This document shows positions 20,126 through 26,862 of a stretch of 64,000 nucleotides of DNA, in pieces; the first letter of the stretch is position 1; every line of letters starts with the position of its first letter. This DNA is from Pseudomonadota bacterium (lineage in GTDB: Bacteria > Bdellovibrionota > Bdellovibrionia > Bdellovibrionales > Bdellovibrionaceae), in contig JBEGVH010000020.1 in the NCBI GenBank assembly GCA_041178425.1, forward strand, positions 64,001-128,000. Direction: 5' to 3'. Both the position numbers and the translations under genes were made by a program. Under the pieces are notes generated by a model. It saw only the letters and a list, made by a program, of their open reading frames with translations, was not told the origin of the DNA and did not search any database.

Positions 20126-20202
20126 GCGGGTGTAGCTCAGTTGGCTAGAGCGCAACCTTGCCAAGGTTGAGGTCGTGGGTTCGAGCCCCATCACCCGCTC
20201 CA
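20126..20202 (+). tRNA. tRNA-Gly (GCC)
   Basis: GCGGGTG acceptor stem, D-arm AGCTCAGTTGGCTAGAGC, anticodon arm CAACC-TTGCCAA-GGTTG, GGTTCGA T-loop, 3' CCA. Confidence 0.97.
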
Positions 20203-20253
20203 ATTATCTCTAATATCAAACGAGAGATTGGTTCTTCCGCAAAACAAATAAGA

Positions 20254-21441
20254 TTAAATAAATTCATAAACTGGTATCGATCGCTCCCTTAGCGTTTTGA
20301 CTATCGAAACTACCTTAGCCGCAACGTAATCCACTTCTTCTTCCGTGGTGTATCTACCCAATCCAAAACGTAAAGTAGAATGAGCAATCCCCCGACTCAA
20401 ACCAATCTGCCTCAACACATACGAAGGCTCATGACTTGCAGAGGAACAAGACGATCCGCTTGAAACAGCCACTTCTGGCATTTGTTTCATGATGGCCTCA
20501 CCAACAATTCCTGCAAAACTCACATTCAAATTATTCGCGAGCCGCTGAGTGGGATGTCCGTTTAAATAAACCTGATCTAATTGGGAATTTAAGGCACGCC
20601 AAAGGCGATCACGCAAACGAATAATACGTGCACATTCAGAGCCCCTTTCTTTCAATGCTAATTCGGCAGCTTTGCCAAAACCAATAATACCAGGAACATT
20701 ATGGGTCCCAGAACGTAGACCTTGCTCTTGTCCACCACCATGTATTTGCTCGGCAATAAGTGATTCAGAGTACCTCTTTGAAGCGTAGAGCGCCCCCACC
20801 CCTTTAGGACCATAGATTTTATGAGCCGAGAGCGAAAGCAGATCAACACCCAAAGCATCAACATTTATCGAGCAGAGGCCTGCCGCCTGAACGGCGTCGG
20901 TGTGTAAAAACACGCCCTCTTTGCGACAGAGGTGTCCAATGTCTTGAATAGGATTAATGGAGCCAATCTCGTTATTAGCCATCATTATTGAAACCAATAT
21001 CGTCGTGGGGCGAAGCGCTTTTTGTACCTGCTCCGCAGAGACTTGCCCATGTTGATTCACAGGCAAATAAGTGACTGAGTACCCTTGGCGCTCAAGATGA
21101 AGACAGGCCTCAAGCACCGACTTATGCTCTACCGATGTTGTTATGATATGATTGCCTCTGCTTTTAGCCTTAGAGGCCAAACCCAAAATTGCTAAGTTAT
21201 TACTTTCAGTAGCACCAGAAGTAAATAATATCTCTTTTTCTGAAGCTCCAAGCAAAGTCGCAATCGTCTTTCGAGCACATCCAATTGCGCGCTCGGCTTC
21301 GCGCCCAAACGAGTGATTACGGTTCGAGGGGTTGCCAAAATGCTCCGTAAAATACGGCACCATTAATTTAAAAACTTCGGGATCAACCATTGTGGTCGAA
21401 TGGTGATCTAAGTAAATCGGAAATTTTAAACCCATCGCCAC
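20254..21441 (-). CDS. iscS: group I cysteine desulfurase (IscS-like), stand-alone
   Basis: IYLDHHSTT, FGNPS, FTSGATESNN, HTDAVQA, SAHKIYGPKG, RSGT, SSGSSC. Confidence 0.88.
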   Translation of the reverse strand: MAMGLKFPIYLDHHSTTMVDPEVFKLMVPYFTEHFGNPSNRNHSFGREAERAIGCARKTIATLLGASEKEILFTSGATESNNLAILGLASKAKSRGNHIITTSVEHKSVLEACLHLERQGYSVTYLPVNQHGQVSAEQVQKALRPTTILVSIMMANNEIGSINPIQDIGHLCRKEGVFLHTDAVQAAGLCSINVDALGVDLLSLSAHKIYGPKGVGALYASKRYSESLIAEQIHGGGQEQGLRSGTHNVPGIIGFGKAAELALKERGSECARIIRLRDRLWRALNSQLDQVYLNGHPTQRLANNLNVSFAGIVGEAIMKQMPEVAVSSGSSCSSASHEPSYVLRQIGLSRGIAHSTLRFGLGRYTTEEEVDYVAAKVVSIVKTLRERSIPVYEFI

Positions 21442-21631
21442 CGCCTTTTTGCACCAATCATGTTGAACTCTGCTATAATTCCAACAAAAACACCAGTCCC
21501 ACTATTAAACAGAAGCCATTTATATTTGTTTCCATTCTTGCCCCCCCTAGTACTAACGCAGAACAACAGCATTTAGAGCCATACAAATAAATCCCCTTGA
21601 CCCCATAGACCTATTGACTACTGTTTTGCCC

Positions 21632-22216
21632 ATGACCAATGCGATTACAGACTTTATCGGTGTTTTTAGCAATGCCTACTCCAGTGAATTTTGCGAGCAG
21701 GCCATCAACACATTCAAAATGGCTGAACAGTACGGCTTCACTGTCAACCGGCAGGAGCACGGCAACGCCAAAAAAACGGCTAAAGATACAAACTCTTTGT
21801 TCATCTCCGCCGAAACTAGCTTTGAATTATTGCATACAGCCCAACTCAGCAGCGAGTTTGGTCGCATTTTCTGGAGCGAAGTTTATCCTGCTTATGCCTC
21901 GAAATATTCTATTCTCGAGGATATGGATCCTCATCGCTATTACTGTTTAAAAATGCAGAATACAAAAATCGGAGGCGGCTATCATATTTGGCATCAAGAG
22001 AATAGTGTTATCAACCAAAGGCGGCTGATAAACTTTATGCTGTACCTCAACACAGTCGAAGACGGTGGAGAAACAGAGTTTCTCTATTACTCGCGACGAA
22101 TCAAGCCAGAAATGGGAAAAATTATTATCTACCCTGCGGGATACACTCACACCCATAGGGGTAACCCGCCCCTTTCGAATGAAAAGTTCGTGATCAACGG
22201 ATGGCTGGAGTTTTAA
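21632..22216 (+). CDS. 2OG-Fe(II) oxygenase (prolyl-hydroxylase-like, phage-associated type)
   Basis: GGGYHIWHQE, MLYLNTVEDGGETEF, YTHTHRGNPP, KFVINGW. Confidence 0.88.
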   Translation: MTNAITDFIGVFSNAYSSEFCEQAINTFKMAEQYGFTVNRQEHGNAKKTAKDTNSLFISAETSFELLHTAQLSSEFGRIFWSEVYPAYASKYSILEDMDPHRYYCLKMQNTKIGGGYHIWHQENSVINQRRLINFMLYLNTVEDGGETEFLYYSRRIKPEMGKIIIYPAGYTHTHRGNPPLSNEKFVINGWLEF

Positions 22217-22217
22217 C

Positions 22218-22562
22218 ATGACGACTATCGAAAACCTTCCTCTGATAGCAGAAAAAGATTATAAATATAGTTTTCCCTACGGTTACTGGGCCGAGCCTCA
22301 AATTCAAGTTTTAAATGGCACCTATGAAGGGCTTGTCTTCGACGTAATGAAATCAGGAGTGGGAAAATTTGCAAACGCCGATGATTATCAATTTACGTTT
22401 TCTTACCGAATTTTACGAATGTGGAAAGACGTACTCCCCGCTCAATTTGATGGCGCCAAAATCACTCTTCAAGATCATGATGTGACTTTTATAAGTAAAC
22501 TCATCTTGAGCTTCATCGAAGACTTTAACAAGAAGAAGAGTCATGGCACTACCCGGAACTAA
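22218..22562 (+). CDS. hypothetical protein
   Basis: 114-aa ORF starting 1 nt after the oxygenase stop and overlapping the next gene. Confidence 0.7.
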   Translation: MTTIENLPLIAEKDYKYSFPYGYWAEPQIQVLNGTYEGLVFDVMKSGVGKFANADDYQFTFSYRILRMWKDVLPAQFDGAKITLQDHDVTFISKLILSFIEDFNKKKSHGTTRN

Positions 22563-23451
22563 TCAATCGATATCGCTTTCGCAGGTCAATACAGAGCTGG
22601 GAAAATCCTCTACGGCCACCATCTCACTTAATGATGCTGCCGTGCGAGCACTGTTCGGTAAAGCAACGGGAGCCATCTCCTTTGCTGATGGCTGGGGAAA
22701 AATCAACCCCTGGACAGGAGCCATTACCTCAAATCAAACGGTAGTGAACCTTAGAACTTGGGCCACCAGCGCTGGTTGGAATGGCACGGTTCCAGCCATC
22801 ATCACACTCAATGCCAATTGCTATATTTACTCAGGCAATACAGCATCGAACGCACTCACCATTGATGGCTCTTGGCCTAATGGCGTGACCTTCGTAAATA
22901 ATGGCTTTGTGCTCGGTATGGGGGGCGCTGGTGGGGCAGGGGGCACAGGTTCAACGTATCCCTATTACACAACAGCGCCGGCCGCATTCAATGGCTCAGC
23001 TGGTACCAACGGAGGGAACGCTATTTCTCTTGGCGTTAATTGCACGATCGCCAATAACGGAACCATCGCCGGAGGCGGAGGGGGCGGAGGCGGTGGCGCC
23101 ATCACGCAATACCTACCAATGTGGGGTACATTTATTATGGATGATGATTTTATAGTGGCCGAATTCAGTGGCGGAGGCATGGGTGGGGGCGGAAAAACCG
23201 GACTCACGAACAGTACCGGCGGAAACGCAGGAACCTCAACAAATCCCGGCGCGGGAGTCACTAATGGTGGGGGCGGAGGAGCCTGGGGAACAACCGGGGT
23301 AGCAGGTACAGCACCCGCTCTACCCGCCAATAAAACATTAACAAGCAAAGGCACCCCTGGTGCCGGAGGGGCCGCCGGAAAGTGCGTAGCCCTTAATGGC
23401 TTTACGGTCACTTGGGCCGCCACCGGAACCAGAGACGGCGCTATTTCGTAG
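22543..23451 (+). CDS. glycine-rich phage tail-fibre adhesin-like protein (T-even gp38-like)
   Basis: N-terminus MALPGTNQSISLSQVNTELG..ISFADGWGK; VNNGFVLGMGGAGG, NNGTIAGGGGGGGG, GGGGGAWG, GAGGAAG Gly motifs separated by variable loops; no signal peptide. Confidence 0.78.
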   Translation: MALPGTNQSISLSQVNTELGKSSTATISLNDAAVRALFGKATGAISFADGWGKINPWTGAITSNQTVVNLRTWATSAGWNGTVPAIITLNANCYIYSGNTASNALTIDGSWPNGVTFVNNGFVLGMGGAGGAGGTGSTYPYYTTAPAAFNGSAGTNGGNAISLGVNCTIANNGTIAGGGGGGGGGAITQYLPMWGTFIMDDDFIVAEFSGGGMGGGGKTGLTNSTGGNAGTSTNPGAGVTNGGGGGAWGTTGVAGTAPALPANKTLTSKGTPGAGGAAGKCVALNGFTVTWAATGTRDGAIS

Positions 23452-23459
23452 GAGGCAGA

Positions 23460-23759
23460 ATGACGACAAAGTATGGAGTTTATAATCCTCAAAAAGGTGA
23501 ATACGATTTGTTTAAAACCAAAGAAGAAGCCCTTGAGGCTTTTTGGGAAAGAGTTATCGCAACAGCCAAAGAACATTACCACAACACCGCTTATACGACT
23601 ATTCATTACAACGAAGACGGAACAGAGACTTGGTTGAATGAGAGCGACCAAGAGATCACCAAAAAAAGAACTCTTAATGAGATCAAGGCGATTCTCAAAC
23701 ACGAACAAACAGAGATTCTCGCTAAAGCGCAACAAGTAAAAGTAGAGAGGTTCCCATGA
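23460..23759 (+). CDS. hypothetical protein (possible fibre assembly factor)
   Basis: GGAGG RBS then ATG at 23460; ATGA overlap with the next gene. Confidence 0.7.
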   Translation: MTTKYGVYNPQKGEYDLFKTKEEALEAFWERVIATAKEHYHNTAYTTIHYNEDGTETWLNESDQEITKKRTLNEIKAILKHEQTEILAKAQQVKVERFP

Positions 23760-24304
23760 GAAAAACCGCCAGTTTAGGGTATTTTGGCAACATTTGGGTA
23801 CGACAAAATCTGATAGAGAAAGCCGGCGATTCTTACCAAGGGCATACTCACCACTTTGACCACGTGTCTTTGTTAATAAGCGGCAAAGCCCTTGTTGAAG
23901 TCGAAGGGCACTCGCCAAAAGAATTCACGGCTCCCACTTTTATTGTTATTCGCAAAGAGGTTGAACACAAGTTCACCGCCCTCGAAGACAATACTGTGTG
24001 GTTTTGCATTTTTGCTTTGAGAGATATCGACGGCGAAGTCGTTGAAGACCTCTACGGACCACAGCATGACCCCTTACACGAATGGCGCAAACTCGAAGAA
24101 GACACGCGAGAGGAACTCCTCAAACAAAAAGAAAACGAGAGTGAAGAAGCCTACAGAAAACGAATGCTTGAACTCGATGAAAAAACAACTCAGATGATTC
24201 ATAACGCCGCAATCTGGAATGAAAATCGCAAAAAGAAAATGCAAGAGCTGCGAGATCAAAATACGACTCCCGATAATCTAGTGGCGACTCCAAACAACGC
24301 CTAA
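23756..24304 (+). CDS. cupin-fold protein with charged C-terminal tail
   Basis: GHTHHFDHVSLLISGK...EHKFTALEDNTVWFCI cupin His motifs. Confidence 0.75.
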   Translation: MRKTASLGYFGNIWVRQNLIEKAGDSYQGHTHHFDHVSLLISGKALVEVEGHSPKEFTAPTFIVIRKEVEHKFTALEDNTVWFCIFALRDIDGEVVEDLYGPQHDPLHEWRKLEEDTREELLKQKENESEEAYRKRMLELDEKTTQMIHNAAIWNENRKKKMQELRDQNTTPDNLVATPNNA

Positions 24305-24309
24305 ATACC

Positions 24310-24340
24310 AAAAAAAAAGGGGGGCCCAAGAGCCCCCTTT
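24310..24340. terminator. intrinsic terminator between convergent fibre operons
   Basis: A9-GGGGGGC-CCAAGA-GCCCCC-TTT. Confidence 0.75.
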
Positions 24341-24359
24341 AAATTTTCAAAAAGATAGA

Positions 24360-25088
24360 TCAATAATCCCGACGCTGTGATTCTAATTCTCCAACACGGG
24401 CCTGTAATTCTTTAATGCCCTCAATAAGCAAGGGAATGATCTTTTCATATTGCACTGTTAGGTAGTTTTCACCCGAAATCGATTGATATTGGTTGTTCTC
24501 ATTGAGTCGACTATCGAAGGGCGCCAGCTGAATCGCCTCTGGGAGAACTTTTTGAATTTCTTGCGCAATCACTCCCACCTGCTGAGAACCATCTTTAAAA
24601 CCGTGAGCCTGAGCACGCGAGTTCATATTAAAATAGCAACCTGAGATTTGATCTATTTTTGCAAGCGCGCTCTCGATGGGGCGAATATTTTCTTTTAAAC
24701 GATAATCCGAAAAATAGGCGGTGATGTTATTGGTGGCGCGAATTTCACCAGCACTGCCAGCCGTTGTTCCCACTCCAATCGAAGACACCTGATAGGTATT
24801 TGCAGTTACCAAGGCTGAAGCCGAACTGGCGGTTCCGGCATTACCTGAGACATTGATTGACCATGTTCCCGAAGCACCAGTGCCATTCGTAGAGGGAGCC
24901 CCACAATCAGAGGCCACGAGTGTCACCGCTCCGGTCTTTCCAGCCACACTCGTCACAGGGGCCGATCCCACTTTTTGCCATGTGGCTGCACGGGCTGGGC
25001 GAATAAAACCCAAAATCATTTGAGAGATCAAACCAAAAAAACCGGTAATAAATGCAAATCTAAAAAAGTTACGTCGTTTCATTGTCAC
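24360..25088 (-). CDS. short tail-fibre-like protein with twin-arginine signal and C-terminal peptidase S74 intramolecular chaperone
   Basis: KRRNFF...PARA|A leader; VTSVAGKTGAVTL fibre motif; ITAYF|SDYRLKENI, VGVIAQEIQKVLPEA, YEKIIPLLIEGIKEL coiled coil. Confidence 0.88.
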   Translation of the reverse strand: MTMKRRNFFRFAFITGFFGLISQMILGFIRPARAATWQKVGSAPVTSVAGKTGAVTLVASDCGAPSTNGTGASGTWSINVSGNAGTASSASALVTANTYQVSSIGVGTTAGSAGEIRATNNITAYFSDYRLKENIRPIESALAKIDQISGCYFNMNSRAQAHGFKDGSQQVGVIAQEIQKVLPEAIQLAPFDSRLNENNQYQSISGENYLTVQYEKIIPLLIEGIKELQARVGELESQRRDY

Positions 25089-25251
25089 TCCTAAACAATA
25101 AAAAAATCGATGAGAATCCCGCGATCAAGCACGCTTCAAGTTGAGCCGACCTCTTCCTATTTTTGAGCCGAAGAGCATCTCACGTCAACGAGTTCGAAGA
25201 ATCATCAAAACCAAAACAAAAATAGTTTTTATTTATTGAAAGGAGCCAGAC

Positions 25252-26826
25252 TTATTTACAGACAAAGAGATCCCCGTTGGAATCAACGCCTAGACTTCCG
25301 GTGGGGGAACAATTAGAACCACTCGTCACGGTTCCCAACACCAAGTTAGTCACCCGAGCCGTACCATTAACATCGAGCTTGTAAGCCGGAGAACTCGTAC
25401 CGACACCAACGTTACCACTCGCATCGATTCGCAGAGAATTGCCACCATTGTTATATATATCAACCACGCCATCACTCGGTGAGAAAAACCCAGTATCCTG
25501 ACTAGCATCTTGAGTGAAAGCAAAACCACCGGCTGTACCCGCACCTTGGGAAGATAAAATTTTTGTGGAAGCGTTGATAATACCAGCTACATCTAGCTTG
25601 TAGGCAGGCACTGTGGTTCCGACCCCTACAATCCCCGTTGATTTCCAAATGCTGAGGCCAGGCAGATTAACATCTCCCGAAAACGTAGGGCTTGCTGTTT
25701 TAGCTGCATCAGTGATCCCGTATCCATCGATGGTGGTGGGCTTACCCGTGGTGATCTTATTCCAATCGAGCGAGGGTATATCCGCGGCCACTAAACTGCT
25801 ACCAGAGGTTACGCGACCTTTCGCATCTGTTGTCACTTTGGAATACGTGCCCGCCGTGCCCACCGACGCTAAAGTCGCAACGGCATTACCTGCACCTGAG
25901 CTCGTCACATCGCCGCTTAATACCGAAATACCATCGGTTATTCCGTAACCATTCAAGGTTGAGGGTCTGCCTGAAGTTATTATGCTCCAATCGAGTGAGG
26001 GTATATCTGCAGCCACTAAACTACTACCAGAGGTCACACGACCTTTCTCATCCGTCGTAACTTTGGAATACGTGCCCGCCGTGCCCACCGACGCTAAAGT
26101 TGCAACGGCACTACCAGTACCAGTAGTCGTAACATCACCACTCAGTGAGGTTATTCCACTCGTACTACCCGTTCCACCGCTGCTACCTCCACTACTGCCA
26201 CCACTGCCAGGCTGGGCGTATTTGTTCGATGTACCAGCAATCAATGCCAAAAGGTCGACGTAGTTTTGGTTTGTCAGAGGTGGTGCTGTAGCGCCTTCTA
26301 CTCTCAAAACGCCACTACTTGGAATTCCAGCAACGTTAAAAGTATCCAAGGAATGAGGGCTTGCCATTATTTCTACGGGGTCGACATTCTCAAAACCACC
26401 ACCAGGATCGAACGACATCACTAAATAAAGCTTGTCGCCCGGCACTCGTTCAAAGCCTCCAGCACACTGGGTTGAATTTAAAACTTTAAGATCTGGATTA
26501 AAGATTTTTCCAAAACTCAGTGGGTTCGTATCCGTTCGCTGACCCTCACCCAAAAATAACGAAAAGTACCCTGGCGATAAGCTCATGTCTTTTACGAATC
26601 TCTCAGAATAAAGAATACAAGTTTTGTTAGGAGCGGTGATAGAAACCATAAATTGCACATTGGTTCCAGCGACAGGCTGCCCGTTTCTATCAACGATACG
26701 ACCCTGATAATTCAGTCCCATTGACGATCGATCAGGGGTAGCAAAAGCCGCCGGAGCCGTTCCCAAAAAGTAAAGGCTAACTAAAATCAACAATGCTAAA
26801 TATCTTTGAATAACTAGATATTTCAT
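25252..26826 (-). CDS. secreted trimeric fibre adhesin, Bdellovibrio MAT-like, lacking an S74 domain
   Basis: Sec signal; LNYQGRI..CILYSE..GYFSLFLGEG N-terminal domain; LSGDVT/GTYSKVTTDxKGRVT/IPSLDW..YGITD repeats; GNVGVGTSSPAYKLDVNG beta-fibre repeats. Confidence 0.82.
   Translation of the reverse strand: MKYLVIQRYLALLILVSLYFLGTAPAAFATPDRSSMGLNYQGRIVDRNGQPVAGTNVQFMVSITAPNKTCILYSERFVKDMSLSPGYFSLFLGEGQRTDTNPLSFGKIFNPDLKVLNSTQCAGGFERVPGDKLYLVMSFDPGGGFENVDPVEIMASPHSLDTFNVAGIPSSGVLRVEGATAPPLTNQNYVDLLALIAGTSNKYAQPGSGGSSGGSSGGTGSTSGITSLSGDVTTTGTGSAVATLASVGTAGTYSKVTTDEKGRVTSGSSLVAADIPSLDWSIITSGRPSTLNGYGITDGISVLSGDVTSSGAGNAVATLASVGTAGTYSKVTTDAKGRVTSGSSLVAADIPSLDWNKITTGKPTTIDGYGITDAAKTASPTFSGDVNLPGLSIWKSTGIVGVGTTVPAYKLDVAGIINASTKILSSQGAGTAGGFAFTQDASQDTGFFSPSDGVVDIYNNGGNSLRIDASGNVGVGTSSPAYKLDVNGTARVTNLVLGTVTSGSNCSPTGSLGVDSNGDLFVCK
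25708..26157 (-). repeat. intragenic tandem duplication, 2 x 225 nt (75 aa)
   Basis: TTTGGAATACGTGCCCGCCGTGCCCACCGACGCTAAAGT identical at ~25837 and ~26062 (offset 225). Confidence 0.9.
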
Positions 26827-26834
26827 CTACTTTC

Positions 26835-26862
26835 TTATCGGCACTTTTGATCAGAAAATTTA
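26835..26862 (-). promoter_or_regulatory. sigma28 (FliA)-type promoter for the fibre gene
   Basis: Minus strand TAAA-N16-GCCGATAA, 8 nt before ATG 26826. Confidence 0.75.

Follow-up and report, generated by a model that had tools for sequence, protein, structure and literature searches.

The seven open reading frames (ORFs) described here lie in a 64,000-nt window of contig JBEGVH010000020.1 from a genome of the Bdellovibrionaceae (the source genome, G000), and coordinates are positions in this window unless a contig or locus label is given. The ORFs form two convergent units that encode a fibre stalk lacking a tip domain, a short protein predicted to plug into such a stalk, and an adhesin with the fold of the phage protein gp38. 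The minus-strand unit comprises the genes for a MAT-family fibre stalk of 524 amino acids (25252-26826) and for a polypeptide of 240 amino acids with a Peptidase_S74 domain (24360-25082), designated hereafter as the plug. The plus-strand unit comprises ORFs at 21632-22216, 22218-22562, 22543-23451, 23460-23759 and 23756-24304, the third of which encodes the adhesin. All seven were found open, intact and coupled, with gaps of 1 and 8 nt and overlaps of 20 and 4 nt in the plus unit, in agreement with the tight coupling described in the original prediction, which had been made from the sequence alone. A GC hairpin at 24320-24337 separates the units; a terminator was called there for the minus strand alone, the plus-strand tail being weaker, so that the terminator proposed to be shared by both units stood for one of them. 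Neither the plus unit nor the MAT gene had a promoter-like site upstream in a promoter scan, and 10 such sites were observed across 19-28 kb compared with 13.7 expected; the bacterial promoter that had also been proposed was therefore unsupported.

The MAT chain carries a general secretory (Sec)-type signal peptide (signal peptides were assigned by inspection), directly followed at amino acids 34-159 by the beta-rich MAT N-domain of about 130 residues (Bdello_MAT_N, NCBIfam NF053851; 74.6 bits against a cut-off of 60) and by a tandem stalk repeat; a repeat of 211 nt was found in the stalk. Two copies of the capping-loop motif V-G-x-x-X-X-P-X-X-X-L could be aligned to 8ojn and 8ond, and the closest PDB sequence matches were 8ojn (E 0.001) and 8ond/Bd2133 (E 0.023). 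Together with the Peptidase_S74 match of the plug (56.9 bits in Pfam, above cut-off), this upheld the reading of the minus unit as a MAT-type fibre plus a short S74 fibre. Pfam detected no S74 or adhesive tip domain in the 524-residue chain, which terminates at C-K and therefore represents a tipless MAT; from its family it would be expected to form a trimeric, surface-displayed stalk. Its C-terminus (amino acids 506-524; 25255-25311, minus strand), designated the socket, reads C-x3-G-S-L-x2-D-x2-G-D-L-F-x-C-K-stop and is the only one of this type in the source genome. A socket alignment gave no meaningful match among PDB sequences. Behind the stop codon lies a GT(G)CTGG-like word (25240-25254, minus strand), also present in two genomes introduced below (G007 and G510); translated in frame it gives V-W in G000 and G007, like the trace of an uncut motif.

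The S74 plug and its predicted adhesin cap

The plug gene was located where the original prediction had placed it (24360-25088), but its start is better assigned to the ATG at 25082, which is preceded by AGGAG, than to the GTG at 25088, which would extend the product by two residues. The polypeptide contains a putative Tat-type (twin-arginine translocation) signal peptide (amino acids 1-32; 24987-25082) with the motifs K-R-R-x-F-F and A-x-A and a putative cleavage site behind the latter, a predicted mature fibre stub (amino acids 33-124; 24711-24986) that begins x-T-W-x-K and ends N-I-T-A-Y-F (24711-24728), and an S74 intramolecular chaperone/protease (24363-24710), all on the minus strand. 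The S-D-x-R-x-K cleavage motif of the chaperone is intact and was unchanged across 71 aligned S74 rows, from which autocleavage of the plug appears likely; Foldseek matched the domain to the MyRF ICA and to the K1F and T5 chaperones, and the ICA fold and C-terminal helix expected of a Peptidase_S74 domain are both present. Four relatives of the plug (98% of length covered, 53-66% identity) share K-R-R-x-F-F, A-x-A, x-T-W-x-K and the S74 motif, so that the twin-arginine motif is kept in 5/5 S74 plugs. It was recognised by eye, and TatC is encoded in the genome, but the Tat model TIGR01409 did not match the source-genome plug. The predicted mature piece is only 43 residues long in the relative P0124, too small for an adhesin, which fits the role of an adaptor.

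Phylogenetic analysis placed the five S74 plugs in one clade (support 0.989) nested within viral S74 regions, with 43-62% identity to 38 viral regions and 28-43% to nine host regions; the viral set was picked by likeness to the plug and thinned to every second locus, and one host S74 was left uncut. This agrees with the proposed phage origin of the short fibre. The Tat-plug DNA pattern matched 0 viral contigs, and its six matches in metagenomes were all unrelated on inspection. One of the 10 printed S74 cleavage sites of the source genome has a NITAY-type end, which is a putative docking end for the adhesin cap. Among viral loci, 78 with such a fibre end were found and 75 parsed, and the next gene bears a cap in 16/74; a NITAY end therefore does not require a cap. 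In a model of the plug monomer the stub was uninformative, with a predicted local distance difference test (pLDDT) value below 70.

The adhesin (302 amino acids; 22543-23451, plus strand) consists of a three-repeat cap (amino acids 1-53), a beta-helix and a polyglycine-II sandwich with variable loops. No signal peptide was evident on it by inspection; of the bacterial export signals originally proposed, those of the MAT (Sec-type) and the S74 protein (twin-arginine) were found, but that of the gp38-like protein was not. Pfam GP38 matched amino acids 70-300 (33.4 bits against a cut-off of 25), and an AlphaFold2 model from 86 aligned sequences (pLDDT 89.9) had three PDB matches at E<=0.001 in Foldseek, all of them gp38 chains: PP01 (9v85, two chains) and S16 (6f45_D), with E values of 8e-12 to 1e-8 and template modelling (TM) scores by query of 0.50-0.53. 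The gp38 fold attributed to this glycine-rich protein was thus confirmed, including the beta-helix and polyglycine-II sandwich. The more specific assignment to T2/S16-type gp38 did not extend to the attachment domain, which in S16 is made of three conserved tryptophans (PMC6851490); amino acids 1-53 contain one tryptophan and three I-S-L/F repeats instead, a cap common in aquatic phages. The adhesin belongs to the aquatic-phage gp38-like group, and from the model we predict that it works like gp38.

The top matches of the adhesin among viral models were cultured and uncultured phage proteins, and 900 relatives were found among 8000 scored candidates, mostly at about 50% identity and one at 75%. 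As a single query it matched no viral contig, and the alignment A1 recovered six viral loci; in two of these the gene lies directly behind an S74 fibre and in two further loci one to three genes past it, with oxygenase-type genes as neighbours in some of the six. A search of phage records gave two matches, confined to the cap region. The alignment gave none among genome and metagenome contigs; because about 600 stretches there matched glycine-rich or other patterns, these blanks are weak. None of 400 other genomes of the phylum encoded a full-length cap-plus-body homologue (three partial matches to the protein), and the Pfam GP38 model matched in six of them, of which the four inspected all had longer architectures and other N-termini. 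Other Bdellovibrionota encode lipoprotein- or pilin-like proteins with GP38-like glycine-rich C-termini (L043:6016-9360, L044:6021-9356, L041:9705-10811 and L042:5159-7285), possible polyglycine-II sandwiches in cellular surface proteins. In the source genome the adhesin is the only cap-bearing ORF, 0.9 kb from the NITAY end.

A complex of three stubs (amino acids 33-124) and one adhesin was modelled alongside three controls, as the original prediction that the adhesin caps the short fibre had suggested. The predicted complex scored 0.81, compared with 0.02 for the best control; the mark used was reached by 116/157 solved complexes and 2/215 mismatched pairs, counts that apply only roughly here. 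Contact agreement between runs was at least 78% and partner pLDDT at least 91. The predicted interface joins residues 119-124 of all three stubs to adhesin residues 7-13, 24-30 and 43-48, that is, NITAYF to the three I-S-L/F repeats. The model speaks for likeness and fit of stub and cap rather than for binding in the cell, and on this basis we regard the pairing as very probable. It is less easily reconciled with an alternative in which socket and plug assemble while the plus unit is an unrelated or disused phage moron, the stub being bare or the relic of an older tip. The plus unit does lie on the opposite strand with no promoter found for it, 58/74 phage fibres with a NITAY end have no adjacent cap gene, and the plug-adhesin linkage was seen in one species. 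However, the 92-residue stub (43 residues in P0124) lacks any adhesive domain, the genome places its sole NITAY end beside its sole cap gene, and the interface predicted between them is specific. All five plus-unit ORFs are intact, and the adhesin differs among strains, one contig of the sequencing runs compared below having an in-frame 3-base insertion within a predicted loop. We consider the moron explanation improbable.

Socket-plug co-occurrence and the PilV motif

The socket resembles the PilV pilin of plasmid R64. Aligned with R64 PilV 333-358, the last 30 residues of the MAT gave a Smith-Waterman score of 63, which 0/5000 shuffles reached; this was a targeted comparison made after the likeness had been noticed, and BLASTP missed the match. 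The motif is complete in R64 PilV, and the sfx repeats of the shufflon (sequence from PMC13729200) encode C-Q-S-G-x-W at 7/7 sites. As judged by these motifs, the MAT chain ends at the tip-switching point of shufflons, and the start of the plug supplies the Trp that is lacking: the socket stops before the Trp at the sfx switch point, and the plug brings a Trp at mature position 3, from which docking was inferred. The original prediction had named a MAT-type fibre and a short S74 fibre and had proposed a multi-part fibre; how these two connect, through a split PilV-type motif, had been missed.

When 301 genomes of the order were searched with residues 1-71 of the short S74 protein, further Tat-signal proteins came up that share the x-T-W-x-K start and have an RCC1 propeller behind it. 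In G007 and G510 such RCC1 plugs follow MAT-type fibres that end G-S-I-x2-D-x2-G-D-L-Y-x-C-K-stop. A plug profile matched in 4/301 genomes, namely G000 (one plug), G007 (two), G510 (two) and G566 (five and one weak match), and the socket pattern matched in the same four, which belong to four genera. The plug profile was built from all four positive genomes and the socket pattern from three; the independent part of the survey consists of the 297 genomes negative for both and of G566, to which the three Bdellovibrionota genomes found later (below) are to be added. TIGR01409 was above cut-off in 2/3 RCC1 plugs scanned. Every plug listed (21/21) has the Trp at predicted mature position 3, and one of them lacks the twin arginines. 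The plug profile had only three matches to longer proteins. The RCC1 plugs are propellers of about 400 amino acids, present in up to five dispersed copies per genome (L087-L094, L126, L128, L129 and L132), and in several the T-W-x-K word recurs some 12 residues further on.

A scan for the socket across all species gave 10 matches: two training sockets (L119 and L125), three chance matches (L121, L123 and L124), three new Bdellovibrionota, L122 and one Pseudomonas plasmid gene. Plugs were present in 3/3 newly found socket-bearing Bdellovibrionota genomes, immediately following the socket in L126 and one gene further on in L128, and the plug profile found none in the genomes of L122 and L127 (the Pseudomonas locus). 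In L122 (254-1090; contig of 3.7 kb, genome label Helicobacteraceae) the motif ends a protein with a secretin-like N-terminal part. The socket pattern had 0 viral matches, and records with the same motif are titled Bdellovibrionales, Bdellovibrio, Pseudobdellovibrionaceae and Oligoflexia. A socket profile searched against 1.84 billion representative sequences gave 147 matches, of which 11 reach the last position; 10 of these end exactly at K, including the source MAT and the L126 protein. The other 136 stop short of the profile end and are mostly repeat proteins, three having been inspected. The MAT N-domain was also found in 3/9 tested end-reaching proteins; most of the others are fragments.

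The Pseudomonas match, a PilV-like pilin (Pfam Shufflon_N), has two copies of the motif, one complete and the other cut at C-K, and secreted Ig-like proteins that start x-A-W or x-T-W come after the pilin. Two further plasmid relatives, inspected out of 145 matching plasmid records, had the same order of pilin and secreted proteins. Pilins with a C-K socket were seen on Pseudomonas megaplasmids at L127:9158-12296, L135:3920-6061 and L136:3983-6156, with two x-T/A-W partner genes in tandem behind the pilin in L127.

From motif complementarity and co-occurrence, docking of plug and socket is highly likely. That stalk and tip are instead fused into one chain at the nucleic-acid level, by recombination or ribosomal bypass, would accord with the position of the break at the shufflon crossover and with the GT(G)CTGG-like word past the stop in three sockets. 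However, each plug is made with a signal peptide of its own, several genomes have plugs and sockets far apart, and the word is not conserved in L120, L122 and L128. The window likewise lacked the parts of a shufflon: no sfx repeats or invertible segments were among the repeats shown, and no recombinase gene such as that for Rci and no integrase-family match were found among its ORFs. No joint across 25082-25252 was among the joints listed for four sequencing runs. Fusion is thus the least probable of the explanations considered here, and highly improbable.

Stalk-plus-tip pairs of other kinds may exist in the source genome. At C26:7160-9750, C6:165734-168480, C21:3114-6748, C26:34904-38239 and C20:16484-19221, several other fibre genes directly precede a small gene whose start resembles a signal peptide, and in two MATs that lack S74 the chain closes with a similar strand motif, short and hydrophobic.

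Genome context and accessory genes

The source genome (3.06 Mb, 43 contigs) encodes 11 S74 domains. Around the locus lie housekeeping-type genes, a tRNA-Gly at 1.4 kb and a second iscS-like cysteine desulfurase gene (20254-21441, 44% identical to the copy on C19), which is divergent from the oxygenase gene and was linked to it in contigs of other runs too. At E<=1e-8 the 55 other ORFs examined in the window gave no match to integrase, capsid, terminase, portal or baseplate PHROGs, in line with the original statement that integrase, capsid, terminase and baseplate genes are absent from the window. Contigs from sequencing runs covered parts of the region (four of 11 listed runs, compared at 80% likeness; one of the four may be the source). 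A lagoon run from another study gave contigs over 20146-22680 (21 differences), 23321-24912 (85 differences) and 25034-25864 (one difference), which bridge the adhesin end to the plug, and estuary and soil runs gave shorter pieces at about 89-97% identity.

A functionless, decaying prophage remnant beside the tRNA-Gly, the outcome which would have overturned the original proposal, has in its favour the nearby tRNA, the absence of the region from both same-genus genomes compared, and slightly atypical codon use of the oxygenase (4th percentile) and adhesin (9th percentile), all locus ORFs being within the range of the genome. In the same-genus genomes other genes follow pgsA and tRNA-Gly, and there is therefore no clean insertion boundary. 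Against decay stand the intact ORFs, the lack of integrase and virion genes, the lack of a tRNA-end duplication among the window repeats shown, the conserved bacterial Tat signal on the stub, in a pattern matching no viral contig, and the pieces of the locus at 89-99% identity in contigs of three other studies. None of the hallmarks of a prophage or tailocin (integrase, att duplication, virion or tail-tube genes, pseudogenes) was found. A remnant, already largely refuted, is very improbable, and the locus is a real, intact, non-prophage module.

The remaining plus-unit genes resemble phage genes, and their role is uncertain. The first (21632-22216) encodes a phage-type 2-oxoglutarate (2OG)-Fe(II) oxygenase (2OG-FeII_Oxy_3, 44.6 bits in Pfam; phrog_61, E 1.4e-38), and the last (23756-24304) a phage-type cupin with a charged C-terminal tail, for which Cupin_2 scored 17.9 bits, below its cut-off of 27.2, and PHROG matches had E values of 2.5e-7 to 7.5e-3, 2/3 being in the tail category. 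Between them, the ORF at 22218-22562 (114 amino acids) had no Pfam or PHROG match; as a lead only, its nearest atlas clusters were mostly phage hypotheticals (feature score 0.87, TM 0.52-0.58 to viral clusters). The nearest clusters of the ORF at 23460-23759 (99 amino acids) were hypotheticals, some viral, likewise a lead only. It is doubtful that the accessory enzymes act on the fibre. Six RCC1-type socket/plug loci (L088, L093, L094, L120, L126 and L128) include sulfotransferase, adenylylsulfate-kinase-like and CysD/CysN-like genes as well as methyltransferase-like and TPR/glycosyltransferase-like genes, of which only the sulfotransferases were confirmed by Pfam; with low confidence, these sulfation and transfer genes might tailor tips or stalks. 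Elsewhere in the source genome, three S74 fibre genes of 617-683 amino acids lie in tandem (C9:255858-261789), and a small contig (C3:1-4526) carries tRNA-like stretches and phage-type genes (ThyX-like, PhoH-like and a second 2OG oxygenase), possibly viral contamination of the assembly.

A proposed three-tier fibre and known systems

Starting from the computed families, motifs, co-occurrence, gene order and predicted stub-cap complex, we infer the following assembly. The MAT stalk would be exported by Sec, trimerise and expose an open socket, a small two-Cys motif without its last Trp strand. The plug would trimerise in the cytoplasm via its S74 chaperone and by self-cleavage free three NITAYF ends, which the signal-less gp38-fold monomer would cap with its three I-S-L/F repeats. 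The adhesin would then ride the folded plug across the inner membrane by Tat, as established for hitch-hiker export of signal-less partners (PMC4273604); Tat would be a sensible route, since folding of propellers and capped trimers precedes export and no other exit is open to the adhesin. Signal cleavage would free the x-T-W-x-K N-termini, completing the socket motif in trans, and the fibre would reach the surface by the MAT route, which the accessible text of PMC10769870 leaves open. There the adhesin loops would bind a target-cell surface, most likely that of prey. The RCC1-propeller plugs, several per related genome, would use the same socket, allowing tip exchange at the protein level.

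We judge the full three-tier fibre moderately probable. Several points weigh against it. Plug and adhesin are in opposite transcription units, stub-plus-gp38 linkage is known from one species, and only 16/74 phage fibres with a NITAY end directly precede a cap gene. A like complex, 6F45, is already solved, so that the pass of the model may partly reflect memory, although the cap sequence differs. Because the queries were built from positives, the co-occurrence is partly built in; the G566 socket, just upstream of a plug, is a remnant that has no start codon and runs past K, and the L122 socket has no plug found in its draft genome. There were no RNA runs among the 11 listed, and predation by the source organism is assumed from its family.

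A role of the fibre in prey recognition appears likely. The three-tier fibre may also form for surface or partner attachment, or the capped plug may be shed as a soluble binder, for which the rarity of predation defects upon single MAT deletions speaks (PMC10769870). However, gp38 adhesins determine host range through their binding to bacterial surfaces (PMC6851490), and MATs are surface-displayed, with one binding a prey glycan (PMC10769870); we hold a function other than prey recognition to be unlikely.

More broadly, the system acts in the manner of a shufflon but is not one. We lean slightly towards a protein-level shufflon, in which one tipless MAT stalk and socket would take a family of Tat-exported, pre-folded plugs, the minimal phage-fibre plug of one lineage would display phage gp38-type proteins unchanged for prey recognition, and the same split would recur on PilV-like pilins of Pseudomonas megaplasmids.

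What determines the prey range of Bdellovibrio-like predators is an old question, to which MAT tips are the current answer. The locus suggests a second way to vary these tips without rebuilding the fibre gene, by plug-in subunits with a docking strand of five residues. The adaptor would accept phage host-range proteins directly, and predators could change targets by swapping tip genes. A single motif connects shufflon PilV with MAT fibres and phage tail tips and, if the model is true, the adhesin would be a natural case of Tat hitch-hiking. Both interfaces, socket C-terminus with plug N-terminus and NITAYF with cap, are short and testable. We found no report of a split MAT, RCC1 plugs or a gp38 in a predator in the literature searched, which left subscription papers mostly outside. 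The main text of PMC10769870 does not contain the words gp38, Tat or operon, and its searchable supplements do not contain gp38, RCC1, PilV or shufflon; its tables 3-4, on other tip domains, lie outside these and could bear on novelty.

The source-genome stalk shares with Bdellovibrio MAT fibres (Caulton et al., 2024; PMC10769870) the signal peptide, N-domain and capping-loop stalk, and the system likewise has variable tips and S74. In the accessible text all 21 MATs of strain HD100 are described as single chains ending in S74 or a fused tip, whereas here the stalk is tipless and the tip would be a separate Tat protein plus a third chain. The S16/T2 gp37-gp38 pair (PDB 6F45) resembles the tip predicted here in its trimeric end, autocleaving chaperone, monomeric beta-helix/polyglycine-II cap and three pseudo-symmetric contacts. 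The predicted contacts here involve three I-S-L/F repeats in place of three tryptophans, and the fibre part is a short adaptor with a Tat signal in a cellular setting, with no virion.

The R64/IncI shufflon PilV has the same Cys motif, the same switch between the second Cys and the Trp, and a constant stalk with variable tips. There, Rci inverts segments at sfx and so joins tips to the stalk in frame, whereas in the source genome the chain stops, the tip has its own signal peptide and the window has no recombinase gene. In CofB-CofJ and TcpB-TcpF of type IVb pili (PMC6048534) a secreted protein docks via its N-terminal segment on a trimeric tip; the dock there is an H-type lectin interface on a pilin, and the one proposed here would be a PilV-type motif, split and borne by a MAT, with a choice of several plugs that Tat would export. 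Finally, in the Tat hitch-hikers HybOC and PaoABC (PMC4273604) a folded subunit with a signal peptide takes along a partner that has none; those are periplasmic redox enzymes, whereas here a fibre trimer would bring a phage adhesin as its cargo.

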